A stretch of DNA of 64,000 nucleotides from an uncultured Thermoplasmatales archaeon (GTDB lineage Archaea > Thermoplasmatota > E2 > DHVEG-1): NCBI GenBank assembly GCA_964410735.1, contig CAYPIF010000107.1, positions 6,656 through 70,655 of the forward strand, in the 5' to 3' direction. Position numbers and translations under genes: made by a program. Shown one piece after another: positions 17,168 through 49,190 of this stretch; position 1 is the first letter of the stretch, and each line of letters begins with the position of its first letter. The notes below the pieces were generated by a model. That model was not told where the DNA came from, did not search any database, and saw only the letters and a list, made by a program, of their open reading frames with translations.

Positions 17168-17193
17168 TCGTTTTCACAACTAAGATATCTCTC

Positions 17194-18875: not shown

Positions 18876-18936
18876 GGTCTGTACCTTCATTTGATATATG
18901 CTATTTTTGAAACTGAAAAAAATGAAAGATGTGGTT

Positions 18937-19320
18937 TTAGGTTTTGTTTTTCCATAATCCATGCACGTTACAGTATTCCCGTGCTTCCACATCATCTGCG
19001 TGTAGTTCGAACAATGCCTCTGGTTTATCACCCGGTTTCAGGAATTTTCTCATACTTGTTCCATCTGCCAGGACCTGTATCCATTCGATGTAATGTTTTT
19101 CTTCCATTGGATGGGACTGATTCTGACCGACCTTCACAAGGATACCTTGCTCAGTTTTTTCAATATATGGTACATGTTTCTCTGTTGAGGCGTCCTGGGT
19201 TTTTTCGTCTTGTTTCTCCATTGGTTTGCCGCAGCATACAAGTTGTCCAGCACCAGCATGTAATACTTCCACAATATTTCCACAAATCATACATTTATAT
19301 ATTTCTCGGACCTTCGTCAT
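18937..19320 (-). CDS. dfx: desulfoferrodoxin (2Fe superoxide reductase) with N-terminal desulforedoxin domain
   Basis: 127 aa. '[12 protein letters not shown]...LVCCGKPM' is the Dx domain. The SOR domain has His ligands and C-terminal 'CNVHGLW'. Confidence 0.85.
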
Positions 19321-19341
19321 TTGTTACATTCCTCCTTATTT

Positions 19342-19917
19342 TCAATATGCTTCTACAAAGAGCTCGTAATAGCTCTGAGGATGTTGACAGGCAGGACAGA
19401 TCTTTGGTGGTTCAGGACCCTCATAGATATAGCCACAGTTCCGACATTTCCATTGGACCTTTTTCTCTCTTTTGAACACGAGACCGTTCTCCACGTTATG
19501 TAAAAGTGTTCTGTATCGTTTCTCATGAGCGGCTTCTACTTTTGCTATAGATGCAAAGCTTCGTGCGACCTCTGGGAATCCTTCTTGCTCCGCGGTTGTT
19601 GCAAAATCCGGGTAGAGTGTCCCCCATTCCATTTTTTCTCCTTCCGCAGCTGCAAGAAGGTTTTCTTTTGTCGTTCCGATCTTACCAGCTGGATAGGTTA
19701 CAGTGATCTCAACATCCCCACCTTGTAGATGTTTGAAGAAGACCTTTGCATGTTCCTTTTCGTTTTCAGCTGTTTCCTCAAATAAGGCAGCGATTTGTTC
19801 ATATCCTTCTTTTCGTGCTTGTGACGCAAAGTAGGTATATCTATTTCGTGCTTGGGATTCTCCTGCGAATGCTTTTAAGAGGTTTTGTTCTGTTTTTGTT
19901 CCTTTTAATGTTGCCAT
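19342..19917 (-). CDS. rbr: rubrerythrin
   Basis: 191 aa. Diiron ferritin-like domain with two E..H motifs. C-terminal rubredoxin 'WKCRNCGY...CPACQHP'. Confidence 0.9.
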
Positions 19918-19943
19918 GTTCCTTTCACCTTAATCTGCATTTT

Positions 19944-20438
19944 TTATGGTCCTGCATGGACCATTTCCCAGTAGACATCTGCCTGTTCGAACCGTTCAAT
20001 GCTCTCTTTTTCGGTTTGTAATATGCGGTAATGACCCATTTCCATATCAGCGAAATATCGTAACATCTGTGAGGTCTTGGTATCTGTGAATCTCTTTGAG
20101 AGCAGCTCATAGAAATCATGCGCTGCTTGTTCGGCCTCCATGGCTTGTGAGAGAATGGTGCTTAATGGGATATCCTCATCTGATGGTATCTGTATCTCAG
20201 GGAGCGGTACAGGCGATGTTTTTGGTATTGTTATCTCTTCCTTTGGAAAGGTTTTTTTAAAGAGTTTTTCGAGGTATTGTTTGTGTTTTGTTTCCTCGGA
20301 AGCAAGAAAATGGAATTTATCTTTCATAAGACCATTTTCCACTTTTTTCTCAAGTGTTGTATAGACCTTGTAACTTTCCATTTCGCTTTTAAGAGCAGTG
20401 AGTATAAGGTCTTTGATGTCATATTCTTCATAGTTCAT
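19944..20438 (-). CDS. ferritin-like/rubrerythrin-family diiron protein (no rubredoxin domain)
   Basis: 164 aa. Two helical halves with 'ASEETKH' and 'ADMEMGH' E...H-type motifs. Confidence 0.55.
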   Translation of the reverse strand: MNYEEYDIKDLILTALKSEMESYKVYTTLEKKVENGLMKDKFHFLASEETKHKQYLEKLFKKTFPKEEITIPKTSPVPLPEIQIPSDEDIPLSTILSQAMEAEQAAHDFYELLSKRFTDTKTSQMLRYFADMEMGHYRILQTEKESIERFEQADVYWEMVHAGP

Positions 20439-20448
20439 GGGTATTCAC

Positions 20449-20853
20449 CTAATCCAATAATCGTTGTTGACCTGTGAGTTTTTGGAGATCTGTTATATCC
20501 TGTGATGCCTCAAGACATCCTAGATATCCTCCGTTTTTATCACGTAAAGCATAGTATTCGATCATCACCTTATGAGGCGGAGTATTCTCATCAAATGTAA
20601 GGTCTATCCAGAATCGTGCTTTCTCTCTTTTTCCTGCTTTCATCTCTTCTAGGATCTGTTCAACCTTTCCGAGGCTCTTTTTGGGATGGCAGTTTCGAAC
20701 GTTCCTGCCAACAACGGCCTCAGGACGTTTGAATATCCTTGTGGCATGTTTGTTCCATGCCACAACGTTATCATCTTTGTCAACGATTGAAATCTCCACA
20801 GGTATTGTTTCTAACACCACGTCGATAAAATCTTCAGGTAGTTCTCCTATCAT
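20449..20853 (-). CDS. PAS-domain protein (putative sensor)
   Basis: 134 aa. PAS-fold pattern 'ISIVDKDDNVVAWNKHATRIF' with a conserved Cys/His 'RNCHP'. Family assignment is uncertain. Confidence 0.5.
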   Translation of the reverse strand: MIGELPEDFIDVVLETIPVEISIVDKDDNVVAWNKHATRIFKRPEAVVGRNVRNCHPKKSLGKVEQILEEMKAGKREKARFWIDLTFDENTPPHKVMIEYYALRDKNGGYLGCLEASQDITDLQKLTGQQRLLD

Positions 20854-20880
20854 TTTTCGTTCCTCTTGGTTCAGATTCCT

Positions 20881-21393
20881 CTATTCCTTTGCGATCTCCG
20901 AAACAAATGTCCTCTGCCCAAGTTCTTTATCGATCATGAAGAGTCCGTTTCCTTTTTCTCCAACGAGTTTAAGTTTGGCAATGATCTCATTGTCATTTGC
21001 CTCCTCTTCGATTTGTTCTGTGACGAACCATTGGAGAAATATCTGCGTCGCATGATCTTTTTCTTTGATAGCAAGGTCCATGAGGTCGTTGATGGATTTG
21101 GTTATGAATTGTTCATGTTCCAGTGTTTTCTCAAACATGTCCATCGGGTTTTCGAACGTAGATGGGGGTTCATCGATCTTTTTAAGATGGATCTTACTTC
21201 CTTGATCATTGAGGTAGTTGTAGATACGCATTGCGTGTTCCATCTCTTCATTGTATTGCACCATGAACCAGTTGGCAAACCCATCCAGACCAATGTTGGT
21301 TGTGTGACCTGACATTGAGAGATAAAGATACGCGGAATACATTTCTTTGTTCATTTGCTCGTTCAGTGCTTTTTCCATTGTTTTGCTTATCAT
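20881..21393 (-). CDS. ferritin (non-heme, FtnA-like)
   Basis: 170 aa. Ferroxidase-centre residues 'EMYSAYLY', 'EEMEHA', 'EHEQF', 'QWFVTEQIEEE'. Confidence 0.85.
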   Translation of the reverse strand: MISKTMEKALNEQMNKEMYSAYLYLSMSGHTTNIGLDGFANWFMVQYNEEMEHAMRIYNYLNDQGSKIHLKKIDEPPSTFENPMDMFEKTLEHEQFITKSINDLMDLAIKEKDHATQIFLQWFVTEQIEEEANDNEIIAKLKLVGEKGNGLFMIDKELGQRTFVSEIAKE

Positions 21394-21413
21394 TTTTCGT
21401 CACCACATTTAAT

Positions 21414-22055
21414 TTAGATCTTTTTATGACAGAACCACCAATCATAACAGTTGTATTCCTTTGTTCGTTTCTCAGCTGTTTTCACATCAGATGCAGGCGG
21501 GACGATGACCTCATCCTTGATCAGTTCATTATTTGGCCAGTTCGCGGGTATTGCAACACCATTACTATCTGCAACTTGGAATCCTTTGATCATGCGGAGG
21601 AATTCATCCATGTTCCGGCCTAATTCTTGAGGATAATACAAGATTGCTCTAATGGTCCCTTTTGGATCCACCATGAATATTGCCCTGACCGTATTTGTTC
21701 CCTTACCAGGGTGGATCAATCCAAGAGTGTTGGCGACTTTTCCGGTATCCGCTATGATAGGGAATTCTATTTTAACATCAAGTTTTTCTTTGATCCATTC
21801 TTCCCATTTGATATGAGCAAATACCTGATCAACGCTCAGTCCAATTAACTCGGTGTTCAATTCCTTGAACTGCTTCCAGCGTTTCTGAAAAGCAACGAAT
21901 TCAGTGGTACAGACCGGTGTGAAATCAGCAGGGTGGCTAAATAATATGAACCATTTACCTTTGTAATCACCGGGTAGTTTTTTCATTCCGTGAGTTGTTT
22001 GTACCTGCATTTCGGGGAATGCATCCCCAATTAATGGCATTTTCATTTCATCCAT
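21414..22055 (-). CDS. peroxiredoxin (AhpC/TSA, 1-Cys/Prx6-type archaeal)
   Basis: 213 aa. Peroxidatic 'FTPVCTTE'. C-terminal 'CYDWWFCHK'. Confidence 0.9.
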
Positions 22056-22126
22056 ATTCCTTTCACCTTCTTTTCAATCATTTTCTCTTTTTATTTTAAT
22101 ATCTTTTAATTCTCGTTCTTTTTCTG

Positions 22127-22288
22127 TTTTTATTTTATTCGTTTCATAGGAACACCACAGCAGTAGGGAATACTGTTGGGTGCTGAGTCAAATTCTATGA
22201 TGGAGTCACAGTTGCAATCCTCGTCCTTACAATTGCATTTGTATTGCACCGGTTTACCTGCCCCTTCACATCCACAACTATTACACAT
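22127..22288 (-). CDS. 52-aa Cys-rich metal-binding protein (9 Cys; C-terminal desulforedoxin-like CCG.PM), not in the ORF track
   Basis: Translation: MCNSCGCEGAGKPVQYKCNCKDEDCNCDSIIEFDSAPNSIPYCCGVPMKRIK. ATG at 22288 with GGGAGGTG 8 nt upstream; TAA at 22127-22129. It sits between fprA and the peroxiredoxin gene. Confidence 0.55.
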
Positions 22289-22324
22289 TTTTTAAACACC
22301 TCCCGGTTTATTACCACTTATAGT

Positions 22325-23509
22325 TCATTTTTTTATATATTTTACTATTTTTGAACCGATATCTCTCATTTTATCTAAATCATTTTCGCCGGGTATATAA
22401 TTGACATTCATACTTTTGATGGGGCGATCCCACCCAAGTCCATCAATGATCTTTTCAATCTCTCCTACCGCCTGACCACCCCACCCATAGGAACCAAAAA
22501 CAAATCCAACTCGGTTAGATGGTCGAAGTCCTTTCAGATAGGTCAGAAAACCACCCATTGTTGGAAGCATCCCATTGTTGAGTGTAGGTGAACCTAGTAG
22601 AACCAATCGTGACTCAAGGATATCAGTTATGATATCTGACATGTGATTTTTTTGAAGATGCCTCATACGCACATCCATTCCTTTGTCCCTGAGGCCGTCA
22701 AGCAATGCATATGCTAATTTTTCAGTTGACCCCCACATAGTGTCATAGATGATTACCGCTTTTTCTTCAGTTGTATCAGTTGACCATTTCTTGTAATATT
22801 CGATCATTTGTTTGTAGTGTTTCCGCCATATGATACCATGACTTGGAGCGATCATATCAAAGTCTAAGGAACCGATTGTTTCGAGGGCTTTTTGGACTTG
22901 CCCCCCATACGGTAAAACGATATTGGCATAGTATTTTGCAGCCTCATCCCTGAGTATATCAAAGGGAAGCTGATCATCAAAGCGTTCTGAAGTTGCTATA
23001 TGCTGACCAAACGCATCATTGGGTATGAGCAGCTTATCAAACGCACTGTATGTGACCATGGAATCAGGCCAATGGACCATCGGTATGTGGACGAACTGTA
23101 GTGTTCTTTTTCCAATAGATAGTGATTCGCCAGAAGTAACAACTTGGGTTTTCCAGTTGTGGTTGTAATGACGTAATAATCCTTTCTCTCCCCGTGTTGA
23201 GGTGATCAGTGTTGCATCAGGGATCATTGGCAGTATCTTTGGAAGGCTTCCTGAATGATCCATTTCCACATGGTTCGAGATGACATAGGCGATATCTTTT
23301 GGGTCTACAACTGATTTGATCCGTTCAAGCATCTCTTCAAAAAGATAATGTTTTACCGTGTCTATCAAAGTAACCTTCTCATCGATTATAAGATATGCAT
23401 TATATGTTGAGCCTTTCGGCGTCTTATATCCATGGAAATCACGGAGATCCCAATCGATGCCTCCAACCCAATAGACATTGGGTTTAATCTTGATTGCTTT
23501 CATCTCCAT
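22325..23509 (-). CDS. fprA: flavodiiron protein (rubredoxin:oxygen/NO oxidoreductase, FprA)
   Basis: Metallo-beta-lactamase-like diiron domain 'HVEMDHSG', plus a C-terminal flavodoxin domain. The ORF track start at 23512 is a GTG; ATG at 23509 overlaps the rubredoxin stop (TGATG). Confidence 0.9.
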   Translation of the reverse strand: MEMKAIKIKPNVYWVGGIDWDLRDFHGYKTPKGSTYNAYLIIDEKVTLIDTVKHYLFEEMLERIKSVVDPKDIAYVISNHVEMDHSGSLPKILPMIPDATLITSTRGEKGLLRHYNHNWKTQVVTSGESLSIGKRTLQFVHIPMVHWPDSMVTYSAFDKLLIPNDAFGQHIATSERFDDQLPFDILRDEAAKYYANIVLPYGGQVQKALETIGSLDFDMIAPSHGIIWRKHYKQMIEYYKKWSTDTTEEKAVIIYDTMWGSTEKLAYALLDGLRDKGMDVRMRHLQKNHMSDIITDILESRLVLLGSPTLNNGMLPTMGGFLTYLKGLRPSNRVGFVFGSYGWGGQAVGEIEKIIDGLGWDRPIKSMNVNYIPGENDLDKMRDIGSKIVKYIKK

Positions 23510-23667
23510 CACTGTACTTCAAATGCTTCTTTTCCTGCACCACAGACAGGACATACCCAATCATCTGGTAGTTCCTCAAAGGATGTTCCCGGGGCTATAC
23601 CCCCATCTGGATCTCCATTTGCAGGGTCATAGATATACCCACAGACGGTACATACATATTTTTCCAT
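23509..23667 (-). CDS. rub: rubredoxin, not in the ORF track
   Basis: Translation: [52 protein letters not shown] (52 aa). It has both CxxCG knuckles; GGAGG lies 6-7 nt upstream of the ATG. Confidence 0.85.
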
Positions 23668-24212
23668 ATTTTTTCCTCCAAATCCGTTTTTAACTGTTTT
23701 TTACTTTCTTTACCCACATAGGTCGGTGCTGTCTTAGGAGAATATCCACCTTTGACAGTATGATAGTACGCATAGGTCATTGGTTCTGCATCGTTCAGAA
23801 CCTCTGCGTTGATGATGTCACCAACAAAAATCGTATGTGTGCCAACATCTATTGATTGATTGACCTTAACTTCCATGAAAGCAATGGCGTGATCCGTGAC
23901 AATAGGCATGTTTGTTCTTTCAAAAATGCAACTTACCCCATTCATCTTGTCAATGTCACGACCGCATTTGAACCCAAATGTGCCAATAAAGGTCATCGGT
24001 GTATCCTTATCAAGGATAGAAAGTGTAAAAGATCTGCTCTTTTGGATAAGTTCATGGGTGAGGTTCTGTCTATTGATGCTGATTGCAAGTGTTGGTGGCT
24101 CCGAGGTAACTTGGAATGCCGCGTTAGCTATCTGACCATTCTCTTTTCCATCAAACTTAGAACATACAACGTAAAGGCCATAGGTGATCTTTTGTAATGC
24201 TTTTTTATCCAT
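23595..24212 (-). CDS. flavin reductase-like (FMN-binding split-barrel) protein
   Basis: 205 aa. 'ITYGLYVV...[11 protein letters not shown]' flavin-reductase domain. Its last ~24 codons overlap the rubredoxin gene in another frame. Confidence 0.75.
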
Positions 24213-24639
24213 TTTTATGCTCCCTTTTTTTTAGGCAGTTCTTGCAAATGCCTCTGAAATATCCGTGGACCTCATCGATCTGATGGCCATGTTTCTTGAT
24301 GTCCTTTTTGATGGTTTCAATATTTGGGCAGTGGAAATGAACATCGTATATCTGTCCACATTCCTTACAGATGAAATGGTGATGCATCTCCTGATGAAAA
24401 TCATATCTATGTTCTGTGGGACATATGGTCAATCGTTGGATGATACCGGAGTTTGTAAGTATTTCAAGGGTGTTATAGACCGTTGTTTTTGAAAGGGAAG
24501 GATATTTTGAGACCAAGGCCTGGTATATCTCGTCAGCAGTGGGGTGCGTGAGATGTGATTCCAGATAACGGAGTATCACAAGTCGTTGCTGTGTGACCTT
24601 CAGATCATGACCCCGGAGAAGCTCAACATAGGTTTTCAC
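24205..24639 (-). CDS. Fur-family metalloregulator (PerR-like, inferred from context)
   Basis: DNA-binding 'LKVTQQRLVILRYL' and a metal site 'HHHFICKECG...CKNC'. The ORF track start (24762) adds a hydrophobic extension of about 41 aa. GTG at 24639 with GGGGT about 8 nt upstream gives a typical ~144-aa Fur protein. Confidence 0.75.
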   Translation of the reverse strand: MKTYVELLRGHDLKVTQQRLVILRYLESHLTHPTADEIYQALVSKYPSLSKTTVYNTLEILTNSGIIQRLTICPTEHRYDFHQEMHHHFICKECGQIYDVHFHCPNIETIKKDIKKHGHQIDEVHGYFRGICKNCLKKREHKNG

Positions 24640-24755
24640 ATGAATTACCCCAATAGATGAAATGATTATTAATTTGAAATAATTACAATTTAAAACCAAA
24701 TACATTCTTTGGTATTTAAGCTTAATGGAAAAGATATAAAAAAGAGGGAAAAAAG

Positions 24756-24968
24756 TTAGCAAGAACTATGTTCAATTGCATCGTTAGGACAGGCACTGAC
24801 ACATGCACAGCATTCAATGCATTCTGCAACATTATTTGCTACAGCCTTCCCATCAACAAGTTCAAAAACATCCACGGGACAAACAGTAACACATTCGCCG
24901 GTACCAGTACATTTCTCATAATCGATAATGATTTTAATATCTCCCTCTTCAAACTCTTTTTTTACCAT
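24756..24968 (-). CDS. small Fe-S ferredoxin
   Basis: 70 aa. Two Cys clusters, 'CTGTGECVTVCP' and 'CIECCACVSACP'. GGAGG SD upstream of the ATG. Confidence 0.7.
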   Translation of the reverse strand: MVKKEFEEGDIKIIIDYEKCTGTGECVTVCPVDVFELVDGKAVANNVAECIECCACVSACPNDAIEHSSC

Positions 24969-25383: not shown

Positions 25384-25833
25384 ATGATAGAAATTAAAAA
25401 AATCGAGAAAACAAATGAATTCCCAATGAACTTAGAAGAATCAGATATCATCGACTTTCTCTATACACATCTTGATAAATATGGAGATAGTAGAAGAGCA
25501 ATCAAGAAAGCAATAAATTACGCATTCTCTGAAGAATCTGGAAAAGGTGGTTTCCTACTGACAGCAACAGAGCATGACTCTCTTGTAGGCACTGTTGTCA
25601 TCAACCACACAGGTATGGCGGAGTACATCCCTCATCATATATTGGTATATATCGCAGTTGATAAGAGTAAACGAGGCAATGGAATAGGTAAAAAACTCAT
25701 GGAAAAAGCTGTTGACCTCTGCCCAGGGGATATCGCACTTCATGTTGAATACGATAACCCCGCAAAACGACTGTATGAACGATGTGGTTTTACTTCAAAA
25801 TATGCAGAGATGAGATATGAACAGCCAGCATAA
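25384..25833 (+). CDS. GNAT-family N-acetyltransferase
   Basis: 149 aa. Acetyl-CoA-binding motif 'RGNGIGKKLMEKAV'. Confidence 0.8.
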   Translation: MIEIKKIEKTNEFPMNLEESDIIDFLYTHLDKYGDSRRAIKKAINYAFSEESGKGGFLLTATEHDSLVGTVVINHTGMAEYIPHHILVYIAVDKSKRGNGIGKKLMEKAVDLCPGDIALHVEYDNPAKRLYERCGFTSKYAEMRYEQPA

Positions 25834-25842
25834 GGAGATACC

Positions 25843-26925
25843 ATGGCGACTTTAAAGATCCATCCAGACAGAATAATCAAAAACATCGAGAAAATGAACC
25901 GTTTTCTCTCAGAACAGGGCAAGGAATGGTCTCTTGTCACAAAGGTTCTCAATGGCCATAAACATACGCTCGAAAAGATTCTAGATTCGGATGTTATCAA
26001 AGGTACCCACTCCATCGCCGACTCAAGGATATCCAGTATAAGGACGATAAAAAAAATCAATAATGACATTGTGACGATGTATCTCAAACCACCCGCTAAA
26101 TCAACAATCAAGAACATCATTCGATATGCAGATATCTCTTTAAATACAGATTTTCAGACGATCAAACTTCTCAATGATGAAGCAAAAAATCAGGATATCA
26201 TCCATAGGATCATCATAATGATTGAGATGGGGGAATTAAGAGAAGGAGTGGTCCGTGATAGATTCCTTGAATTTTATGAGAAGGTTTTCGATCTATCCAA
26301 CATAAACGTCATAGGTCTCGGAACAAACCTAGGATGCATGTATGGTATAGAACCAACCTTCGATAAGTTGATACAGCTCTGTCTGTACGAACAACTCATT
26401 GAAACAAGATTCAACCAAAATCTCGAGCTCGTCTCCGGCGGCAGCAGCATTACATTACCACTGCTTAAACAAAAAAAAGTACCAAAAGGGGTAAATCATC
26501 TCAGAATAGGAGAAGCGGTCTTTTTAGGCACCTCACCCCTCCAACAGAGAAAGTTCATGAGGATGTCGACCAATGCATTCGAATTCATTGGAAATATTGT
26601 CGAGTTGCAAAAGAAGGAAAATATGCCTGACGGGATCATGGGATCCGGTAACGTTGGTCATGCTGAAACAATAGATACCGAGGAAAAACTACAGGAGGAG
26701 TACAAAGCATTGCTTGATTTCGGTGTTATCGATGTGGATAGCCCCAATCTCACCCCAAAGAACAGAGACGCTCAGTTTTTAGGAACAACATCCGATCTGA
26801 CCGTGTATAGTGTTGGATTGGATATCAGCAGATATCAGAAACAAAAACTTATGCACTTCGACCCAAATTATATGGCAGTCGCACGGTTAATGAACTCGAA
26901 ATTCATTACAAAGCAAGTTACATAA
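25843..26925 (+). CDS. PLP-dependent alanine-racemase-fold protein (YhfX-like putative amino-acid racemase)
   Basis: 360 aa. N-terminal TIM-barrel with 'LVTKVL' around a putative PLP-Lys. The C-terminal beta domain is similar in length and organisation to Alr/ornithine-racemase-like proteins. Family assignment is moderate. Confidence 0.5.
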   Translation: MATLKIHPDRIIKNIEKMNRFLSEQGKEWSLVTKVLNGHKHTLEKILDSDVIKGTHSIADSRISSIRTIKKINNDIVTMYLKPPAKSTIKNIIRYADISLNTDFQTIKLLNDEAKNQDIIHRIIIMIEMGELREGVVRDRFLEFYEKVFDLSNINVIGLGTNLGCMYGIEPTFDKLIQLCLYEQLIETRFNQNLELVSGGSSITLPLLKQKKVPKGVNHLRIGEAVFLGTSPLQQRKFMRMSTNAFEFIGNIVELQKKENMPDGIMGSGNVGHAETIDTEEKLQEEYKALLDFGVIDVDSPNLTPKNRDAQFLGTTSDLTVYSVGLDISRYQKQKLMHFDPNYMAVARLMNSKFITKQVT

Positions 26926-26994
26926 CAGGAGGCAGTTTAGTAGAGAATGGGATGGAATTAAGGAGTTATAAACGTAGAAAATCAGTGAGGAAAT

Positions 26995-28158
26995 GTGATG
27001 AGAGAGGATGGATTAATTAAACTAAGACATATGCTCCATAAATATGCGGAAATATCAGGCAATGAAAAGAAAACATCCACTATCATCATCTCACATCTCA
27101 AAGAATTCCACCCTACAAAAATTGTAACAAATCTCGGAAAAGGATTTGGTGTTGCCGCGGTCTTTGAATCAGGAAACCCAGGCCCAACAATCATGATTCG
27201 TGCAGAGTTGGATGCATTACCGATCAACGAAGAAATAAACCAACCATATCGTAGTTTAACAAAAGGAGTTAGCCACAAGTGTGGCCATGATGGCCATATG
27301 ACAATTCTCTGTGGCGTAGCTAAAAAACTAGATTCTTTAAAGGAAAAATATAATGGAATAGTAGTGTTATTATTCCAACCCTCGGAGGAAACAGCAACCG
27401 GTGCTAGAGATCTGATGGATGATGAGCATTTTCATAAACTAAACCCTGATCTAATCATAGGGTTCCATAACATCCCAAGTTTTCCAATGGGAACGGTTTT
27501 AGTTCGAAAAGACGTATTTTCTATTGCATCTCAAGGGCTCATTGTAAGACTTTATGGCCAAACGTCCCACGCCGGTAACCCTGAGCTTGGAAAAAATCCA
27601 ATGGATGCACTTTTAGACATTGTTGAATCAACAAAAGAAATTTCCAAATCATTCCAAACAACGGATCCTTTCTCATTCATTACTATCATACATTTTAACC
27701 TTGGTGAAATCGCCTTTGGAACAAGTCCTGGAGAAGCTACGTTTATGGCCACATTCCGTAGTTCGAGCGACAAAACGATGGACGAGATGAGTAAAAGGGT
27801 ATTAGAGTCCATTTCAAAGGTGATACCTAAGTATGGCATCAAATGGGATCATAAGTGGGTGGAGATATTCCCCGCTTTGACAAACAGAGGCCCAGGAATC
27901 TCTGAAATTATCAGTAGTGCAAAAAATTTAATGATGCCATTTGAAGAGTTGCCTAGCCCATTCAGCTGGTCGGAAGATTTCTCATATTACCAACAGAGAT
28001 ATACTACTGTTTTCTTTGGTATAGGCTCAGGGAAGCAACAACCATCACTTCATTACAAATCATATGATTTTCCGGATGAACTACTCAACCAAGGCGTGGA
28101 TCTATGCTTTGAGATACTTTGCACTTGTTCAAAACAAATTTGGAGGGCAGATAGATGA
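26995..28158 (+). CDS. M20-family amidohydrolase (aminoacylase/hippurate-hydrolase-type)
   Basis: 387 aa. 'IRAELDALPI', 'HKCGHDGH', 'GQTSHAG' metal and catalytic motifs. Confidence 0.8.
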   Translation: MMREDGLIKLRHMLHKYAEISGNEKKTSTIIISHLKEFHPTKIVTNLGKGFGVAAVFESGNPGPTIMIRAELDALPINEEINQPYRSLTKGVSHKCGHDGHMTILCGVAKKLDSLKEKYNGIVVLLFQPSEETATGARDLMDDEHFHKLNPDLIIGFHNIPSFPMGTVLVRKDVFSIASQGLIVRLYGQTSHAGNPELGKNPMDALLDIVESTKEISKSFQTTDPFSFITIIHFNLGEIAFGTSPGEATFMATFRSSSDKTMDEMSKRVLESISKVIPKYGIKWDHKWVEIFPALTNRGPGISEIISSAKNLMMPFEELPSPFSWSEDFSYYQQRYTTVFFGIGSGKQQPSLHYKSYDFPDELLNQGVDLCFEILCTCSKQIWRADR

Positions 28159-29315
28159 AGTATACTTCGTATATTGAACTAAACCAGAAAGCATTGTCTA
28201 AAAATATACATTATCTACAGATTGTCATCGGCCCCAATGTCAAATTCGTTTCAGTCATCAAAGGTAACGCATATGGCCATGGTATCAAAGCATTTGTTCC
28301 AATGGCTGAAAAATGTGGTATCGACTACTTTGCGGTTTTTGATGTTTTTGAGGCTCAACAAGCATACTGTGTCAAAGAGGAAGATACAAAGGTTATAATC
28401 ATGGGCATGATAGATGAAGAAGATCTCCCATGGGTAATATCAAATAAGTGTTCTTTCTTCGTAAGTAGTCTGAGAACGCTGGAGAAAGCACTCTCTGTTG
28501 CTGAGGTTCTTGACAAGAGAGCAGTGATTCATCTTGAGATTGAAACAGGTCTCCACCGGACAGGATTTGAGGAAAATGAATTGAATCGTGTCGTTAAACT
28601 TCTAAAAATGAAAAGTGATTCGGTCATTATTGAGGGTATATGTACACATCTCGCAGGAGCAGAGAGCATCTCAAATTATGTTCGCATCCATAAACAAATG
28701 GGAATATTCAGAAGGATAAAGGATTGGCTGATAGAACAAGATATCTCAGCGACATATTATCATGTTGCATGTTCCGCTGCAGCTTTGATGTATCCTGAAT
28801 CTCGGATGAACATGGTACGGATGGGAATTGCTCAGTATGGTTTTTGGCCAAGTAATGAAACAAAGATACATAAATTATTATCAGACAACTCTTTGTACAA
28901 GAGAAACCACTTGCACCGAATCTTAACTTGGAAAAGTAAGGTGGGTGGAATCAAGATCGTATCCCCCGGAGAATTTGTAGGCTACGGAAATGAGTATCAG
29001 ACCATGAAAACAACTCGTATTGCAACCATCCCCGTAGGCTATTACCATGGATACAGACGAAGTTTAAGCAACGTTGGACATGTTCTCATTCAAGGAAAAA
29101 AGGCCCCGATCATAGGTATGGTAAACATGAGTATCATGATAACCGATGTTACAAATATTCCTAATGCTTCAAAGGGTGATGAAGTTGTTCTCATTGGAAA
29201 CCAGGGGAATCAAAAAATCAGTGTTGGGTCCTTTTCTGAACGTTTAAACCTCGTGAACTACGAATTACTCTCAAGATTACCAATGCATATTCCTCGATTT
29301 GTTAAACAAGTATGA
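28155..29315 (+). CDS. alr: alanine racemase
   Basis: 386 aa. PLP-Lys motif 'VIKGNAYGHGI'. C-terminal 'GYYHGYRRSLSN' with the catalytic Tyr region. Confidence 0.85.
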   Translation: MKYTSYIELNQKALSKNIHYLQIVIGPNVKFVSVIKGNAYGHGIKAFVPMAEKCGIDYFAVFDVFEAQQAYCVKEEDTKVIIMGMIDEEDLPWVISNKCSFFVSSLRTLEKALSVAEVLDKRAVIHLEIETGLHRTGFEENELNRVVKLLKMKSDSVIIEGICTHLAGAESISNYVRIHKQMGIFRRIKDWLIEQDISATYYHVACSAAALMYPESRMNMVRMGIAQYGFWPSNETKIHKLLSDNSLYKRNHLHRILTWKSKVGGIKIVSPGEFVGYGNEYQTMKTTRIATIPVGYYHGYRRSLSNVGHVLIQGKKAPIIGMVNMSIMITDVTNIPNASKGDEVVLIGNQGNQKISVGSFSERLNLVNYELLSRLPMHIPRFVKQV

Positions 29316-29510
29316 CGCAAAACCTGTAATAAACGATATTTGTTGTCAGAGCCTTTGTCCAGTCAATAAATTACGTGGTTTTTTCCTACTCGGAAAAAAG
29401 ACTGTATTTTGTTTATTAACGACTCTATGCAATTCATCTCATAAGCCAATTTTTTTGATGGTTTGCTCGATTGATCCCTCATTAAAAAAAAATGATATAG
29501 AAATGAGAGA

Positions 29511-29930
29511 TTAGTAGAGTTTAAGACCCATACTGATTCTATCCTCAACCTTAAAACCGTTTTTCTCATAAAACGGGACTATTTCAGAGTTATCTCCTTC
29601 GACCTGCAAGTTCACCTTGAGACATCCGCGCTTTTTTAGCTCTTCAAGAGCTTTTTTTAAAAGAAGTGACCCAACTCCTTTATTCCGGTATTGTTTTTTC
29701 ACCGCCAATGAGTAGATCCATCCTCGGTGTCCATCGAATCCAGCAATGATAGTACCAATGAGTTGTTGTTCATCCGTTGCAATAAAGATAAGACCATCAT
29801 TATGTTTCGTTTTCATATCAATTGAGATACCGGGATCATTGTGAAAATCAGGAAGGTGAAAACTCTCCTCCCAAAGGGAGATAACAGATGCCCGATCCTT
29901 ATCATCATACTCTCTAATGCCCACAATCAT
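29511..29930 (-). CDS. GNAT-family N-acetyltransferase
   Basis: 139 aa. 'YRNKGVGSLLLKKALEEL'. Confidence 0.8.
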   Translation of the reverse strand: MIVGIREYDDKDRASVISLWEESFHLPDFHNDPGISIDMKTKHNDGLIFIATDEQQLIGTIIAGFDGHRGWIYSLAVKKQYRNKGVGSLLLKKALEELKKRGCLKVNLQVEGDNSEIVPFYEKNGFKVEDRISMGLKLY

Positions 29931-30031: not shown

Positions 30032-30448
30032 TTACAAATCCGCTTTTATCGGGTTTGGCCCTAACTTTCTGATATCCTCTGTCATATCATTAATAAGGTC
30101 TGCATACTTTTTCCCCTCGGATGCTGAGACATATTCAAATCGTACCCGTTCAGGTTCCAATCCGAACTCGGCTAACATCTTCTTCAAGAGTTTCATCCGC
30201 CTATTTGCCTTATAATTTCCTGATTGATAATGACAATCACCTGGATGGCAACCAGCTACAAGCACACCATCAGCCCCTTTTTTCAAAGCCTCAAGAATGT
30301 AAACAGGGTCAACCCTCCCTGAACACATGACACGGATGGTCTTGATATTCGCAGGGTATTTCATCCTACTGGTACCGGCAAGGTCCGCTCCAGCATAGGA
30401 ACACCAGTTGCATAAAAACCCAATAATATTTGGTTCGAATTCACTCAT
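30032..30448 (-). CDS. mvhD: methyl-viologen-reducing hydrogenase delta subunit (MvhD)
   Basis: 138 aa. 'FLCNWCSYAGADLAG...CSGRVDP...AGCHPGDCHY' is the MvhD/FlpD fold. Confidence 0.85.
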   Translation of the reverse strand: MSEFEPNIIGFLCNWCSYAGADLAGTSRMKYPANIKTIRVMCSGRVDPVYILEALKKGADGVLVAGCHPGDCHYQSGNYKANRRMKLLKKMLAEFGLEPERVRFEYVSASEGKKYADLINDMTEDIRKLGPNPIKADL

Positions 30449-30969
30449 ATCTGTTTCACCTCATTTTTTATACGAAATTTTTCCATGGACACGTTTTCAA
30501 TCTTTTTATTTAAAGAGAGCTCAGAGAGGATCATCTGTACAGCTTTTGGAACTACCTTTTGAATCTCAGAACTTAGCGATTCATTGAACTCTGTTGGTAT
30601 CGTTTTAAGATTAACTCCAATGATGATGATGTTCTCCGGTATCTGATCATCACCGATCTTTTTTGAAAGATCAATTGCTTCCATAAGCGTAACATCATGA
30701 GGATTACATGAATGAACCGTTTCGATCTCTTTTATATTAAACCGTCTGATAGATCCCGGAGGTACCCCATTCATACAGACCGCATCGACTAGTATTGCAC
30801 GGTCATAACCTCGCATGAAATCTAAGAGATTCATCCCACCTGTTTGCGCTTCCTCAATGATTACGTTTGATGTTTCATTGACCCTTTGTTTGAGTTCCCT
30901 AACAATGTGGATACCTGCTCCATCATCACCAAGGATAGGATTTCCAATTCCAAGGATAATTGTTTTCAT
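30445..30969 (-). CDS. [NiFe]-hydrogenase maturation endopeptidase (HycI/HoxM family)
   Basis: 'ILGIGNPILGDDGAG' and 'DAV' motifs. The ORF track start (31113) lies inside mvhA, so 'MKTIILGIGN' at 30969 is preferred. Confidence 0.8.
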   Translation of the reverse strand: MKTIILGIGNPILGDDGAGIHIVRELKQRVNETSNVIIEEAQTGGMNLLDFMRGYDRAILVDAVCMNGVPPGSIRRFNIKEIETVHSCNPHDVTLMEAIDLSKKIGDDQIPENIIIIGVNLKTIPTEFNESLSSEIQKVVPKAVQMILSELSLNKKIENVSMEKFRIKNEVKQI

Positions 30970-30985
30970 GACTATAATATCACTC

Positions 30986-32440
30986 TTATTGTGTAAATGT
31001 CTTATACGGTTGTTTGTTGCTATTATAGATGTCAATTTGCATGGGCATCCCACCAGGTATCGAATGAGTCGCACACGCAAAACATGGATCATATGCACGG
31101 AACGCCATCTCAACCTTGTTCAGGATTCCATCATCGACCTTACCCTCTGAAATGATACCTTTTGCTGCATCTCGTACGCTCATTGTTATGGCACCAGCAT
31201 TGTTTGTTGTCGCAACGATAAGATTTGCTTTTTCAATGAGTCCTTTCTTATCAAGTTTATAATGATGTATCAAGGTTCCTCGTGCTGCCTCAGTGACCCC
31301 AAACCCTTCGCCTGGTTCTCCAACAGGATTTCTGATATCTTGAGAGGTTATTTCGGGATCTTTGATAAGTTCCATGCTCCGCTCAGTAGCATAAAGTAGT
31401 TCGATCAATCGTGCCCAATGATAAGCAAGGGTTGAGTTCACTGGTTTGCCACCAAGTGTCTTGAACATCGCCTTGTATTCTTTATCTGCTAAGGGGGTTG
31501 CCATGCCATCCGATGCGTTCAAACGGCCGAGTGGCCCAACCCGATAGATACCGCTTTTCTCACCATCGGTCAACCCATTCCAGCCGATATCCTTGAGATA
31601 AGGATATTTCATATAACTCCATTCCTCGACCCGTTCAGCAACAATTTTGTGATAATCCTGAACATCAAATTTCACATGCTCCTTACCTTTTTGATCGGTA
31701 ACACGTATCAGCCCATCATAGAAATTCACTTTATTGTTCCCATCAACCAGACCCATGTTGTACGTATTGAGTTGATACGGGTCACTTTTGATGAGGTCAA
31801 CATACTCATTATTTCCAAGGACAAGGTCATGGAAGAGTTTCAGAGAGAACTGCGCAAAACCAACACATGATTTTGCCATTTCCTCAATATTTATGACCTC
31901 TTCATCATTCAATCCTTTAGAAACACCCCCTGGAAGCCCACAGACTGGATGAGTTGCTTTGCCTCCAAGGATACCGGTGATCCGTTGGCCATATGCTCGA
32001 TGTTTAATGACCTCTTTTCCAATATCAACTCCTGCTTTCTCGATGACACCAAGAACATTTCGTTTTGCTGGTGGCGCATCAGGCCCTACAACAAAATCAG
32101 GACCTCCAAGATAGTAAAAATGAAGGATGTGATCATAGATGAAATATCCACAGTACATGAGTTCCCGTAGTTTCTTTGCCGCATTGGTCGGTTCGACATT
32201 GAATGCATCATCCAATGCTTTGGTACTGGCAAAATGATGAGCAACAGGACATACACCGCAGATACGACTGGTTATCTGAGGCATGTCCTCAGCTCTTCTT
32301 CCCTGCGCGAATCGTTCAAACCCTCGAAGTTCAGGGATCTGTAGATATGCATTCTCAACGTTTCCTGCATCATTTAAAAAAATATTGATCTTTCCATGAC
32401 CTTCAAGCCGGGTGATCGGATCTATTGTTATAGTCTTCAT
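30986..32440 (-). CDS. mvhA: [NiFe]-hydrogenase large subunit, F420-non-reducing (MvhA-type)
   Basis: 484 aa. N-terminal 'RLEGHG' and 'CGVCPVAHH'. C-terminal 'DPCFACATH' Ni-binding motifs, all Cys with no in-frame TGA. Confidence 0.9.
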   Translation of the reverse strand: MKTITIDPITRLEGHGKINIFLNDAGNVENAYLQIPELRGFERFAQGRRAEDMPQITSRICGVCPVAHHFASTKALDDAFNVEPTNAAKKLRELMYCGYFIYDHILHFYYLGGPDFVVGPDAPPAKRNVLGVIEKAGVDIGKEVIKHRAYGQRITGILGGKATHPVCGLPGGVSKGLNDEEVINIEEMAKSCVGFAQFSLKLFHDLVLGNNEYVDLIKSDPYQLNTYNMGLVDGNNKVNFYDGLIRVTDQKGKEHVKFDVQDYHKIVAERVEEWSYMKYPYLKDIGWNGLTDGEKSGIYRVGPLGRLNASDGMATPLADKEYKAMFKTLGGKPVNSTLAYHWARLIELLYATERSMELIKDPEITSQDIRNPVGEPGEGFGVTEAARGTLIHHYKLDKKGLIEKANLIVATTNNAGAITMSVRDAAKGIISEGKVDDGILNKVEMAFRAYDPCFACATHSIPGGMPMQIDIYNSNKQPYKTFTQ

Positions 32441-33438
32441 TCCCGTATCACCTTCCGGTTTATGATTGAGGTAGGTAACGTATATTTGTAAAATGTTCCA
32501 AGTGGGTCTACGATATCCTCAATGAGCTTATCAACATCCTCATCGCTCATCCCTTCCTCACCCTCAACACCAAGGATCGCTGCAAGACTTGATATCATCT
32601 TTCCGCCTTGCTCAAGACTATTTGGTGTGGGCCCACCACAACCGGTACAAGGCATATTCGCATCAAGACATCGTGCATCACAGCCCCCACGTGTTGCAGG
32701 TCCCATACAGATGATCCCTTGTTCCAGGAGACATTTTTCCTCGATATGATCAACCTCGTAAACACGTCGAATCTTGGTAATTTTCTTTTCAGTTTTTTCA
32801 AATCGACATTCATCACAGACAGATTTCAAGGGACCGATGACGGATCCTTTTGGTGGAAGTCTATTCTCAACGATTGCGTTGACCGCGGTCATGATCTGAT
32901 CGGGTGTCGGTGGACATCCATGAAGATAATAGTCGACCTCAACAGTTTGATCAAGACTTTTTACAGTATCAAAAAAATCCGGAAGGCTCAATTCTCCTTC
33001 TTTGACCTTACTTTTTGTCTTCGGTGTGACTTTCTCGGCATTCTCCGTCGATGGGTTATCAAGATATGCCACATCGAATATCTCTTTTTTATTGGCAATA
33101 TTCGCAAGGCCAGGGATGCCACCATGTACTGCACATGCACCGAATGCGACAAGGATCTTTGATTTTTTCCGTAAGAGGAATGCCATGTTTTCCTGTTCCT
33201 CTGTTCGGATAGCCCCATTGAAAAAACAGACATCGATATGATGATCATCCATTTCTTCAACATCTTTGTACTTTGTATCAAGTGCCACTGGCCAGAAAAG
33301 GATTTCCGCTATCGCTGCAACATCAAGGATTTTTTCGTCGATATCGAGTACGGCAATCTCGCAACCACCGCAACTAGCTGCCCAATAAAAAGCAATATTC
33401 ATTTTTTTATTCTGAGAAGACAGGTTTTTTTTAACCAT
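32437..33438 (-). CDS. mvhG: [NiFe]-hydrogenase small subunit (MvhG-type)
   Basis: 333 aa. Proximal-cluster 'SCGGCE' with further Cys clusters. Overlaps the mvhA start. Confidence 0.8.
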   Translation of the reverse strand: MVKKNLSSQNKKMNIAFYWAASCGGCEIAVLDIDEKILDVAAIAEILFWPVALDTKYKDVEEMDDHHIDVCFFNGAIRTEEQENMAFLLRKKSKILVAFGACAVHGGIPGLANIANKKEIFDVAYLDNPSTENAEKVTPKTKSKVKEGELSLPDFFDTVKSLDQTVEVDYYLHGCPPTPDQIMTAVNAIVENRLPPKGSVIGPLKSVCDECRFEKTEKKITKIRRVYEVDHIEEKCLLEQGIICMGPATRGGCDARCLDANMPCTGCGGPTPNSLEQGGKMISSLAAILGVEGEEGMSDEDVDKLIEDIVDPLGTFYKYTLPTSIINRKVIRE

Positions 33439-33612: not shown

Positions 33613-34404
33613 TTGATATATATGAACTATGAGACAGTTACAACGGAAACAAAGGATCATTGCATGTACATTACCCTCTGCAGACCAGAGAGGTTAAATG
33701 CTTTTGACATTAAACTAGGGATGGAACTTGGTGAGGTTCTTGAACATGCTTCAAAGGATCAAACGGTAAAAGCCGTTGTAATGAAGGGAACAGGAAAAGG
33801 GTTCTGCGGTGGTGGAGATGTCAAAGAGATGCATACTGCAAAGGATAAACCAGCATTCCTTCGAGAATTAACCAAAGTCATCCATCGATGCGTCATTGCT
33901 ATGAGAACAATGGAAAAACCGGTCATCGCAGCGGTCAATGGAGCCTCATTTGGAGCTGGATTTTCGCTTGCATTAGCCGCTGATATCATCATTGCCTCGG
34001 AAAATGCTACGTTTGGAACAGCATTCATAGGAATCGGTCTTGCCCCTGGTTGCGGTACGCAATTGTTCACACAGCTTGTCGGGTATCAAAAAGCATGCGA
34101 ATACATCTTAACCTCAAAATCATTCTCTGCAAAAGAAGCAGAAAAATTAGGAGTCATAAACAAGATCGTTGAAGAGGCAGAGTTAGATTCAACTGTCGAA
34201 TCATTTGTAGATATCTTTCGAAGATCACCCACCATTGCAGTAGGCAAGGCAAAAGTTCTGATCAATAAAAGCCTTGACAATAATTTTATCAATCATTTGG
34301 AACTTGAAAGTATCACCGCAGCATATACCGCTGGAACAAATGATTTCTCAGAAGGCGTGCAAGCATTTACTGAAAAACGTAAACCAACCTTTTCAGGAAC
34401 CTAA
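33613..34404 (+). CDS. enoyl-CoA hydratase/isomerase (crotonase)
   Basis: 263 aa. 'LNAFD', 'GGGDV', 'GASFGAGFSLALAADI'. Confidence 0.85.
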   Translation: MIYMNYETVTTETKDHCMYITLCRPERLNAFDIKLGMELGEVLEHASKDQTVKAVVMKGTGKGFCGGGDVKEMHTAKDKPAFLRELTKVIHRCVIAMRTMEKPVIAAVNGASFGAGFSLALAADIIIASENATFGTAFIGIGLAPGCGTQLFTQLVGYQKACEYILTSKSFSAKEAEKLGVINKIVEEAELDSTVESFVDIFRRSPTIAVGKAKVLINKSLDNNFINHLELESITAAYTAGTNDFSEGVQAFTEKRKPTFSGT

Positions 34405-34514
34405 TTTTTATCGGCAATTCATGTAAATTTTTTGAGAAAACTTTATGTATTTTACCTAATATGGAAGGGCAACTACGAAAGAAAAGATGGACAAATACAC
34501 CCTGGTGAATAGAT

Positions 34515-35300
34515 ATGGACTACACAACAATTCAAATCGAAAAGGATCAGGATGTTGCAACAATCTATCTCAATAGACCTGATGTACATAACGCGATGGA
34601 TGAAACGTTAATGAGAGAGCTTACCGATTGTTTTACAAAATTGGATAACGATATTGATATCAGGATAATTATTTTAACAGGGAACGGGAAATCATTCTGC
34701 GCTGGTGCAGATCTTAAATGGATGAAAAGCATGGTACACTATTCAAAGGAAGAAAACATCAGAGACAGTCGGTTGCTCCTAGACCTTTATGAGTCGATTT
34801 ACCATTGTGATAAACCAACGATTGCACGAGTAAATGGACATGCATTCGGAGGAGGAATTGGGTTATTTGCCGCATGCGATATTGTTGTTGCTGTTCCTGA
34901 ATGTAAATTTGCATTCAGCGAGGCAAAACTTGGTATCATCCCTTCCGTTATATCTACCTATATCCTTCGTAGAGCCCATTCGTTATCACAGGTCAGACGC
35001 CTGTTCATAACTGGTGAGCGGTTTTCCTCAGAATATGGTGAAAAAATAGGTTTGATTGATTATGTTGTTAACTTTGAGGAGATCGATACCTTTATTCAAA
35101 AATACATTACAATCATTCAATCATCAGGACCAAAGGCGATAACTGAAGTGAAAGGATTATTATATGCGTATGAGACCCATCCAAAAGAGAAATATAAAGA
35201 ATATACTGTTAACAAGATATCTGAATTACGAGTATCAGAGGAAGGGCAAGAAGGAATCAACGCATTTTTGGAAAAACGAAAAGCAAGGTGGTGTGAATAA
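34515..35300 (+). CDS. enoyl-CoA hydratase (crotonase; methylglutaconyl-CoA-hydratase-like)
   Basis: 261 aa. 'FCAGADLKWM', 'GHAFGGGIGLFAACDI'. Confidence 0.85.
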   Translation: MDYTTIQIEKDQDVATIYLNRPDVHNAMDETLMRELTDCFTKLDNDIDIRIIILTGNGKSFCAGADLKWMKSMVHYSKEENIRDSRLLLDLYESIYHCDKPTIARVNGHAFGGGIGLFAACDIVVAVPECKFAFSEAKLGIIPSVISTYILRRAHSLSQVRRLFITGERFSSEYGEKIGLIDYVVNFEEIDTFIQKYITIIQSSGPKAITEVKGLLYAYETHPKEKYKEYTVNKISELRVSEEGQEGINAFLEKRKARWCE

Positions 35301-35303
35301 ACG

Positions 35304-36806: not shown

Positions 36807-36810
36807 TCCT

Positions 36811-37305: not shown

Positions 37306-37317
37306 GGAGATGGAATC

Positions 37318-40483: not shown

Positions 40484-40484
40484 G

Positions 40485-43959: not shown

Positions 43960-43961
43960 AT

Positions 43962-44492: not shown

Positions 44493-44550
44493 AGTGTATC
44501 ACCCTAAAAAAAAAGAAAAAGGTTGAGAGCGTTGTCAAAGCAGACATGGG

Positions 44551-45507: not shown

Positions 45508-45511
45508 GATA

Positions 45512-47913: not shown

Positions 47914-47944
47914 CTAAATAAATGAAAGAGAGATGAAGGTGTTA

Positions 47945-49111: not shown

Positions 49112-49190
49112 AAAGCTTTCTATATTATATTCGACAATTTAAGGAAAGAAATATAACAAACAAGTCGTTTCACATGCTGGGGAGATCACA

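Follow-up and report, generated by a model that had tools for sequence, protein, structure and literature searches.

A widespread acetyltransferase, racemase and aminoacylase gene cassette in a Thermoplasmatota archaeon and its possible role in D-amino acid salvage

The gene cluster and its encoded proteins

The window analysed in this study, a 64,000-nucleotide stretch of contig CAYPIF010000107.1 (positions 6,656 to 70,655 of the forward strand; assembly GCA_964410735.1), derives from an uncultured Thermoplasmatales archaeon and contains a cluster of five genes. They encode two GNAT acetyltransferases (GNAT1 and GNAT2), two racemases dependent on pyridoxal phosphate (PLP), namely the product of gene 2 and the alanine racemase Alr, and an amidohydrolase of the M20 family (Table 1). 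All five open reading frames (ORFs) listed in the initial annotation of this DNA were found, and the Pfam E-values of their products (1e-12 to 1e-43) lie far beyond chance.

The four plus-strand genes (GNAT1, racemase, M20 and Alr) look like a single operon. Overlapping stop and start codons had been described for the three enzyme genes, which holds only for the M20/Alr junction (ATGA, 4 nt); the GNAT1 and racemase genes are separated by 9 nt, and the racemase and M20 genes by 69-72 nt, depending on the M20 start. Gene callers run on identical contigs place this start at the ATG codon. Each plus-strand gene is preceded, at a distance of 5-10 nt, by a ribosome-binding motif of the GGAG/GGTG type, and the stop codons of the convergent Alr and GNAT2 genes lie 195 nt apart, with a T-rich spacer between them. 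We infer a putative operon promoter from the TATA-like box upstream of GNAT1, the sole promoter-like element 5' of the four-gene unit. A sigma-70-type scan flagged the TATAAT ending at 25304, and in the promoter/terminator scan of the window promoter-like sites were no more frequent than in shuffled sequences.

Table 1. Window coordinates of the genes and other features described in the text
Feature	Position	Strand	Remarks
TATA-like box TTATATAA	25296..25303	+	about 81 nt 5' of the GNAT1 start; read from sequence
GNAT1 acetyltransferase gene	25384-25833	+	149 aa; ORF and Pfam match
OrnR/Orr-family racemase gene (gene 2)	25843-26925	+	ORF, Pfam and NCBIfam matches
M20D amidohydrolase gene	26998-28158	+	386 aa; alternative GTG start at 26995
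Alanine racemase (Alr) gene	28155-29315	+	ORF and both Alr domains
GNAT2 acetyltransferase gene (YpeA/PRK03624-type)	29511-29930	-	convergent; NF002959 match
Oxidative-stress island	15843-24968	-	
NiFe hydrogenase/Hdr-like genes	30032-33438; 39593-42452	-; +	
Acyl-CoA metabolism region	33613-38925; 42499-60280	+; 	
Gingipain-like Peptidase_C25 gene	8672-10843	-	723 aa
Amidohydro_1 protein gene	61127-62158	+	343 aa

Judged by its sequence, the product of gene 2 is a fold-type III PLP racemase of the OrnR/Orr family that carries a Cys/Lys pair and belongs to a distinct, uncharacterised clade. Pfam Ala_racemase_N was matched at 1.4e-12, and the sole NCBIfam match, full-length and at 249.5 bits, was to NF040742 (ornithine racemase Orr). 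The equivalog cut-off of this model (480 bits) was reached neither by the window racemase nor by one bacterial member of the cassette described below (288 bits). A 2025 study set ornithine racemases apart from all other fold-III racemases by a Cys/Lys pair; in the Salmonella enzyme (STM2358), Cys164 and Lys36 form the acid/base pair, Asn161 replaces the stacking His, and Arg129 and Arg220 are kept (PMC13397332). Six residues of the window racemase (K34, R133, N162, C165, R221 and Y343) are invariant in an alignment of 32 homologues and, when mapped by motif and position (with offsets of 1-4 residues for the first five), correspond to Lys36, Arg129, Asn161, Cys164, Arg220 and Tyr349 of Salmonella OrnR (PMC13397332). 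By this mapping the catalytic Cys is carried by an N-x-x-C loop and replaces the Tyr of Alr. In the AlphaFold2 model (pLDDT 85) the loop (residues 164-169) is of low confidence, and it is presumably mobile. The fold type, the Lys and Cys pair, the Asn in place of the stacking His, the two PLP-binding Arg residues and the mobile Cys loop would all be shared with the characterised OrnR/Orr enzymes, i.e. those of Salmonella, Clostridium (Acetoanaerobium) sticklandii and the staphyloferrin pathway of S. aureus. We consider its substrate to be probably a basic amino acid (ornithine or lysine).

The initial annotation had described this protein as YhfX-like, leaving the choice between YhfX and the ornithine/lysine racemases to further analysis. 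The family assignment went to Orr, short of the equivalog level, and the likeness to YhfX was not borne out. Top Foldseek matches of the racemase model were lysine, serine, alanine and broad-spectrum racemases (probability 1.00, TM about 0.7, 12-16% identity). E. coli YhfX, which as judged from its family has the same general fold-type III PLP barrel, and whose structure we take to be deposited in the PDB, had no place among the top 50 fold matches. A sequence search of the PDB at E <= 0.001 gave no homologue (only spurious repeat proteins were matched), and a profile of the 32 family sequences matched no PDB racemase at E <= 0.01. The clade also differs from known OrnR/Orr enzymes in its genetic context. 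The latter have D-ornithine aminomutase, Ord and OrtAB or a D-Orn/D-Lys decarboxylase as neighbours; these systems (oraSE/ord/ortAB or the decarboxylase) were found neither among the Pfam families within 10 kb of the window racemase nor among the recurrent neighbour families of the cassette. Unlike them, the clade of the window racemase is nearly always accompanied by a dedicated GNAT, and often by an M20D enzyme, Alr and a symporter.

The M20 protein is assigned by its sequence to the cytoplasmic M20D metallo-amidohydrolases (aminoacylase/ILR1/YxeP-type). It contains both Peptidase_M20 (2.1e-27) and M20_dimer, and TIGR01891 was matched at 216.6 bits (cut-off 153.75). Its best relatives of solved structure are YxeP (1ysj, 131 bits; aligned over 360 aa, in which CGHD.H is retained), an M20 peptidase from S. 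aureus (4ewt), ILL2 from plants and N-acyl-glutamine aminoacylase. Among 18 cassette homologues the alignment has 71 invariant columns, which include CGHDGH, EE and downstream His residues. Scores against the specific equivalogs DoeB2, CpsA, DapE and ArgE were all far under the cut-offs. The earlier description of an aminoacylase-type enzyme was thus upheld, and the protein falls in the N-acyl-L-amino-acid amidohydrolase (M20D) group and not in an unrelated peptidase clade.

Alr, translationally coupled to M20 through the ATGA overlap, is by its motifs an alanine racemase of the Tyr/Lys type, as had been proposed with the term canonical. Both domains are present (Ala_racemase_N, 1e-42; Ala_racemase_C, 5e-37), TIGR00492 was matched at 270.1 bits (cut-off 168), and the best PDB match was alanine racemase 4y2w (186 bits), with the VIKGNAYGHG and VGYG catalytic motifs aligned.

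The two acetyltransferases, earlier viewed as a pair bracketing the operon, turned out to be of different standing. GNAT1 (Pfam Acetyltransf_1, 1.7e-14) reaches the cut-off of no NCBIfam model, and its sequence places it in an uncharacterised, highly conserved family of GCN5-type N-acetyltransferases, a near-obligate partner of the racemase. Mean column identity in this family is 62%, and the R-x-x-G-x-G coenzyme A motif, E122 and Y131 are invariant. The fold neighbours of its AlphaFold2 model (pLDDT 92.8) are generic small-amine GNATs, Hpa2 among them, which do not discriminate the substrate. GNAT2 matches the YpeA/PRK03624 equivalog NF002959 at 148.5 bits (cut-off 124); we know of no function established for YpeA, even in E. 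coli. It occurs only in the closest Thermoplasmatota relatives, in one of which an inserted FAD-oxidoreductase gene parts it from Alr, and the locus scans found it in none of the bacterial cassettes. GNAT2 was for this reason rejected as a cassette member and is probably just a neighbour.

Conservation and origin of the cassette

The genomic neighbourhood was compared in two scans: (i) a racemase-anchored scan (one genome per species, the racemase family as query, the 80 best loci kept), and (ii) an independent, M20-anchored scan of metagenome contigs with the M20 family as query. In the former, 47 loci were well flanked, i.e. by 4 kb or more on either side. Of these, 43 have GNAT1 together with the racemase gene, 19 have both M20 and Alr, and 18 have the complete set of four; a gene for an Na+:solute symporter (PutP/PanF-like SSF), which sits inside the bacterial cassettes, was found in 20. 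In the M20-anchored scan 36 loci were well flanked; Alr is the neighbour of M20 in 28 of these, and the full set of four occurs in 17. In a protein collection clustered at 90% identity, about 3,260 clusters match the racemase and about 2,200 the GNAT.

The same four to six families were found in at least 10 gene orders in Ignavibacteriota, Bacteroidota, Cloacimonadota, Holophagae and Thermoplasmatota. Examples (with ORR for the racemase and SSS for the symporter) are GNAT1-ORR-SSS-M20-ALR, SSS-GNAT1-ORR-M23-M20-ALR, GNAT1-M20-ALR-ORR, M20-GNAT1-x-ALR-SSS-ORR and the divergent ORR<GNAT1< >M20>ALR. Re-assembly in many orders across phyla points to selection on co-location, not to inherited synteny, and is strong evidence that the cassette genes are functionally coupled; they are under selection to stay together. 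The neighbourhood comparison called for in the initial annotation therefore revealed strongly conserved linkage and no independent distribution of the genes. The pairwise divergences of the four proteins are also correlated (r = 0.84-0.94), which is supporting evidence only, since plain vertical co-inheritance would yield the same.

These data bear directly on the view that functionally unrelated genes came to lie together by chance. About half of the GNAT1-racemase pairs lack M20 and Alr, and some M20-Alr pairs stand without the other genes, as would be expected if the adjacency were fortuitous. Against it speak the recurrence of the same families in both domains and in several phyla, the start and stop codons that overlap or nearly abut, and the correlated divergences. 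Fortuitous adjacency is strongly disfavoured, and we regard it as the least probable of the explanations considered.

Two kinds of additional genes were noted at the cassette loci. The first encodes an M23-like metallopeptidase of about 225 aa, with intact HxxxD and HxH motifs and without a signal peptide, and is a recurrent extra member: it lies inside the cassette or at most about 420 nt from it in 13 loci (L012, L068, L075, L087, L088, L092, L104, L112, L113, L115, L136, L143 and L146), and in one further locus the distance is about 3 kb. Among NCBIfam models it best matches the central region of the PRK06148/PRK06149 proteins of about 1000 aa, one of which is named "aminotransferase". The second kind comprises transaminase genes. 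Beside the cassettes of L104 and L115, and divergent from them, are genes for an ornithine-oxo-acid transaminase (OAT; 674 and 666 bits, cut-off 378) and an L-lysine 6-transaminase (LAT; 687 bits, cut-off 521), and an ArgD/LysJ-like transaminase gene lies inside the cassette of L089. Such neighbours were found in 3 of about 160 loci, which belong to two independent clades.

Cultured organisms appear to be among the carriers: Melioribacter roseus has the full cassette, and Perlabentimonas gracilis the GNAT1-racemase pair. On another Thermoplasmatales contig (L008:2150-4901), the GNAT1-racemase pair is followed by genes for a tyrosine recombinase and a P4-family primase, with no M20-Alr there, which suggests an integrated element. 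A group II intron domain (Rfam RF00029, 44 bits) was detected at L099:6660-6738, directly 5' of the M20 gene of a rearranged cassette. Apart from this intron, a search for a riboswitch that would name the ligand, made at Rfam gathering thresholds in the window and in 15 cassette loci, returned only a tRNA.

The archaeal and bacterial proteins share 57% (racemase), 51% (GNAT1), 42% (M20) and 49% (Alr) identity, values barely under the lowest found between bacteria. In a neighbour-joining tree (without support values), the racemases of Thermoplasmatota group together in a single clade that lies within the bacterial sequences. The simplest history suggested by these comparisons is that the cassette passed once, whole but for the transporter, into Thermoplasmatota from bacteria of the FCB group (Fibrobacterota-Chlorobiota-Bacteroidota and allies); the cassette is then a bacterial import and no archaeal invention. 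The earlier statement that such an assemblage has not been described in archaea appears to be true, with the addition of this bacterial origin. The GC content of the operon (0.37-0.40) equals that of its surroundings, and its flanks are syntenic in relatives whose racemases are 80-87% identical; it must therefore have been resident for a long time, with no recent insertion. A mobile-element origin in the window was rejected on the grounds of this synteny and of the lack of an integrase.

Racemase homologues were also noted on contigs binned as "Methanomicrobia" (L026, 3 kb, with GNAT1) and "Woesearchaeota" (L064, without GNAT1). In the tree both fall outside the Thermoplasmatota clade, and they may represent further transfers or binning errors.

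Possible functions of the cassette

Two interpretations had been offered in the initial annotation, namely (i) the racemisation and deacylation of N-acyl-amino acids, and (ii) a D-amino-acid detoxification or salvage module; of these, the second agrees better with the evidence. In the first, the GNAT would acylate a D-amino acid, the racemase would invert the N-acyl derivative and an L-specific M20 enzyme would deacylate it, giving an irreversible D-to-L conversion as in Geobacillus kaustophilus. There, genes for a GNAT succinyltransferase, an NSAR/OSBS racemase and an M20 L-desuccinylase are clustered, so that the trio of GNAT, racemase and M20 in the window repeats the family composition of a known D-to-L pathway (bioRxiv 10.1101/2022.03.03.481873), and the M20 protein is indeed of the aminoacylase type. 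That pathway, however, uses a single N-acylamino-acid racemase of the enolase superfamily (bioRxiv 10.1101/2022.03.03.481873), whereas both window racemases are fold-type III PLP enzymes, in which formation of the external aldimine needs a free alpha-amine (PMC13397332), so that an N-alpha-acyl amino acid is an unlikely substrate. No enolase-superfamily NSAR/OSBS gene was called at 10 kb or less from the operon, and none was found among the recurrent cassette families. We consider this route very improbable.

We tentatively read the window operon of this sediment archaeon, with a probability of roughly 45%, as the archaeal, transporter-less form of a cassette that is common among anaerobic bacteria of the FCB group and would serve the salvage or detoxification of D- and L-amino acids, namely alanine and a basic amino acid. 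The breakdown of protein and cell-wall debris would supply the input, N-acyl-amino acids or very short peptides, which in bacteria would be taken up by the Na+:solute symporter of the cassette and would sometimes first be cut by the cytoplasmic M23-like peptidase. The M20D enzyme would hydrolyse these compounds to free amino acids, Alr would interconvert D- and L-alanine, and the OrnR-type racemase would do the same for a second, probably basic amino acid (ornithine or lysine), the D-forms thereby being fed into L-specific catabolism. GNAT1 would acetylate the amino acid of its partner racemase, with the result that the D-enantiomer is trapped or detoxified or that one amine is masked.

Several considerations lead to this salvage scheme. 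The presence of an importer and hydrolases, with no ligase, favours catabolism over biosynthesis. The need of PLP racemases for a free alpha-amine implies that the hydrolase acts first and that the racemases then equilibrate the D- and L-forms, and the near-obligate pairing of GNAT1 with the racemase implies that both act on the same amino acid. The OAT, LAT and ArgD/LysJ-type neighbours, together with the ornithine activity of the characterised OrnR enzymes, point to a basic amino acid of which L-specific transaminases would consume the L-form. The host, too, has the genes of a peptide degrader, namely those for a gingipain-like C25 peptidase, an OPT transporter just outside the window and acyl-CoA catabolism. 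We regard as shown the enzyme families with their catalytic residues, the linkage kept through reshuffled gene orders and the bacterial origin; what we infer is which substrates are used, in which direction the flux runs and what GNAT1 acetylates. Among archaea, Methanococcus maripaludis provides a known case of an Alr that was acquired horizontally and serves catabolism (PMC4902934). The alr-ald-agcS genes of this organism serve D-alanine catabolism and have no role in the cell wall, to which we liken the Alr of the window (PMC4902934); the difference is that M. maripaludis has an alanine dehydrogenase and the AgcS permease, both of which the window operon lacks, its Alr being combined instead with an M20D enzyme, a second racemase and a GNAT.

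The transaminase neighbours also fit another scheme, in which ornithine or lysine is catabolised in acyl-protected form (AST-like or yxe-like): GNAT1 would acetylate one amine, the other end would be transformed (e.g. by omega-transamination), and M20D would deacetylate the product. Acetylation could follow the D-to-L conversion by the OrnR-type enzyme, or the racemase could act on an N-omega-acetyl substrate, with Alr handling alanine in parallel. Besides the ArgD/LysJ-type (acetylornithine/acetyl-lysine family) transaminase embedded in one cassette and the OAT/LAT genes beside two others, this scheme draws on the active site of OrnR, which offers the distal amine no anionic residue (PMC13397332) and might conceivably accept a neutral N-omega-acetyl side chain. 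It also draws on YxeP, the closest solved relative of the M20 protein, which acts together with the GNAT YxeL in a salvage operon of the acetylate-transform-deacetylate type that has an importer of its own (PMC9706529). This operon of Bacillus subtilis (yxe or scm), which encodes YxeL, YxeK, the M20D deacetylase YxeP and the YxeMNO importer (PMC9706529), resembles the bacterial cassettes as a salvage set of GNAT, M20D and importer. It differs in its monooxygenase/lyase, which is absent from the cassette, where the intervening enzymes are racemases, and in its substrate, an S-substituted cysteine, which as far as can be told is not that of the cassette. Transaminases in so few loci, and the lack of a recurrent dehydrogenase or other "transform" enzyme in the cassette, argue against acyl-protected catabolism, as does the tightly coupled Alr, which is left without a role. 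Moreover, M20D enzymes characteristically cleave N-alpha-acyl groups. This scheme seems to us an unlikely one.

The substrate could also be an N-acetylated diamino acid serving as a compatible solute (N-delta-acetylornithine or N-epsilon-acetyllysine), made by GNAT1, re-imported by the symporter and degraded by M20. Many carrier contigs have sample names that we read as saline or soda-lake (SL_3KL sediment, Salar de Ascotan), two cassettes have a gene for an MscS channel within or next to them, and the M20 protein has a sub-threshold match (177 bits, cut-off 550) to the N-acetyl-diaminobutyrate deacetylase DoeB2. Such turnover would leave both racemases without a role, and genes for synthesis and degradation are not normally co-transcribed; carriers also come from non-saline soils, mines and digesters, and MscS is limited to the two loci. 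On balance, we regard the solute scheme as improbable.

Nor does a biosynthetic purpose, the supply of D-Ala and D-Orn or D-Lys for a cell-envelope polymer or a secondary metabolite, seem any more probable than solute turnover. To our knowledge, Thermoplasmatota, the phylum of the archaeal host, are without peptidoglycan. No ligase (ATP-grasp, Mur or nonribosomal peptide synthetase) recurs in the cassette, and the importer and two hydrolases indicate catabolism. In some Bacteroidales the GNAT1-racemase pair does lie beside Mpl-like Mur ligase genes and beside apparent rodA, pbp2 and mre genes (judged from size and order), a neighbourhood limited to one closely related group of loci. Elsewhere, Alr- and Orr-type racemases supply D-amino acids for peptidoglycan and staphyloferrin A (PMC13397332).

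A number of points weigh against the salvage scheme itself. Neither sequence nor fold explains the role of GNAT1, whose structural neighbours are generic, and as a racemase alone would be enough for salvage, the near-obligate acetyltransferase hints at chemistry outside the model. With about half of the racemase-GNAT1 pairs standing without M20 and Alr, the two halves of the cassette may be separable in function. The aminotransferase neighbours come from only three loci in two clades, the archaeal operon has no transporter, and SSF transporters are not known as peptide carriers. The alanine specificity of Alr is presumed, the VanT-G serine-racemase model scoring almost as high (245 bits, under its cut-off of 460). 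Finally, the enzyme activities of all four proteins are predictions from sequence.

The pairing that this scheme explains least well might be its most novel part. GNAT1 and the Cys/Lys racemase could form a new "acetyl trap", in which stereoselective acetylation of the racemase product irreversibly removes or converts basic D-amino acids (D-Lys, D-Orn, D-Arg); with M20D this would perhaps amount to a counterpart of the NSAR D-to-L pathway that is based on PLP and on side-chain protection. We rate the trap as unlikely, about on a par with acyl-protected catabolism. If it is true, it would represent a widespread bacterial and archaeal response to environmental D-amino acids, with a cassette spread across domains.

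No description of this gene combination was found in the searchable literature. The components all come from known families; what is new is their combination, the dedicated GNAT-OrnR pairing and the spread across domains. A sizeable part of the organic nitrogen in sediments consists of D-amino acids and N-acylated amino acids, which are degraded slowly, and their use by anaerobic heterotrophs, including the abundant benthic Thermoplasmatota, is poorly known. In the cassette, a dedicated acetyltransferase, an aminoacylase and an alanine racemase are linked with the Cys/Lys type of racemase chemistry, which was recognised only recently; this would represent a new kind of biology only if the GNAT-racemase coupling proves to rest on a novel stereochemical trick. 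Pyrrolysine or D-ornithine metabolism, pseudomurein and opine catabolism were also considered as settings for these genes, and were rejected for lack of supporting genes.

Surroundings of the operon

The closest genome record is that of a Thermoplasmatota metagenome-assembled genome, whose racemase is 81% identical to that of the window, and a thermosome is encoded in the window. Judged from its gene content, the host is an anaerobic archaeon that degrades peptides and fatty acids. Directly 5' of the operon lies a long oxidative-stress island, which is regulated by a PerR/Fur-type protein encoded at its end and is likewise syntenic in relatives. It encodes an FTR-like protein, glutaredoxin, nitroreductase, SufBD/SufC, desulfoferrodoxin, two rubrerythrins, a PAS protein, ferritin, peroxiredoxin, an FprA-type flavodiiron protein, flavin reductase and a small ferredoxin.

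The window also contains a gene for a gingipain-like C25 peptidase, and the longer contig encodes an OPT oligopeptide transporter a short way outside the window, before its first position; both would suit an organism that lives by degrading protein. On the other side of the operon, in two blocks, lie genes for an MvhD-like subunit, a HycI protease, the large and small subunits of a NiFe hydrogenase, and HdrB-like (CCG) and HdrA-like proteins. This Mvh-type hydrogenase and Hdr-like set suggests a heterodisulfide-type electron-bifurcating module in an apparently non-methanogenic member of the Thermoplasmatota.

Much of the remaining downstream part is densely occupied by genes of acyl-CoA metabolism and beta-oxidation. 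These encode two enoyl-CoA hydratases, biotin carboxylase with biotin carboxyl carrier protein, a carboxyltransferase, an HpaB-like protein, the alpha and beta subunits of electron transfer flavoprotein, two acyl-CoA dehydrogenases, three AMP-ligases, methylmalonyl-CoA mutase with MeaB, thiolase and 3-hydroxyacyl-CoA dehydrogenase. At a distance of 32 kb from the operon there is a gene for an Amidohydro_1 protein, followed by one for a protein with four CBS domains; the superfamily of the former includes D-aminoacylases.

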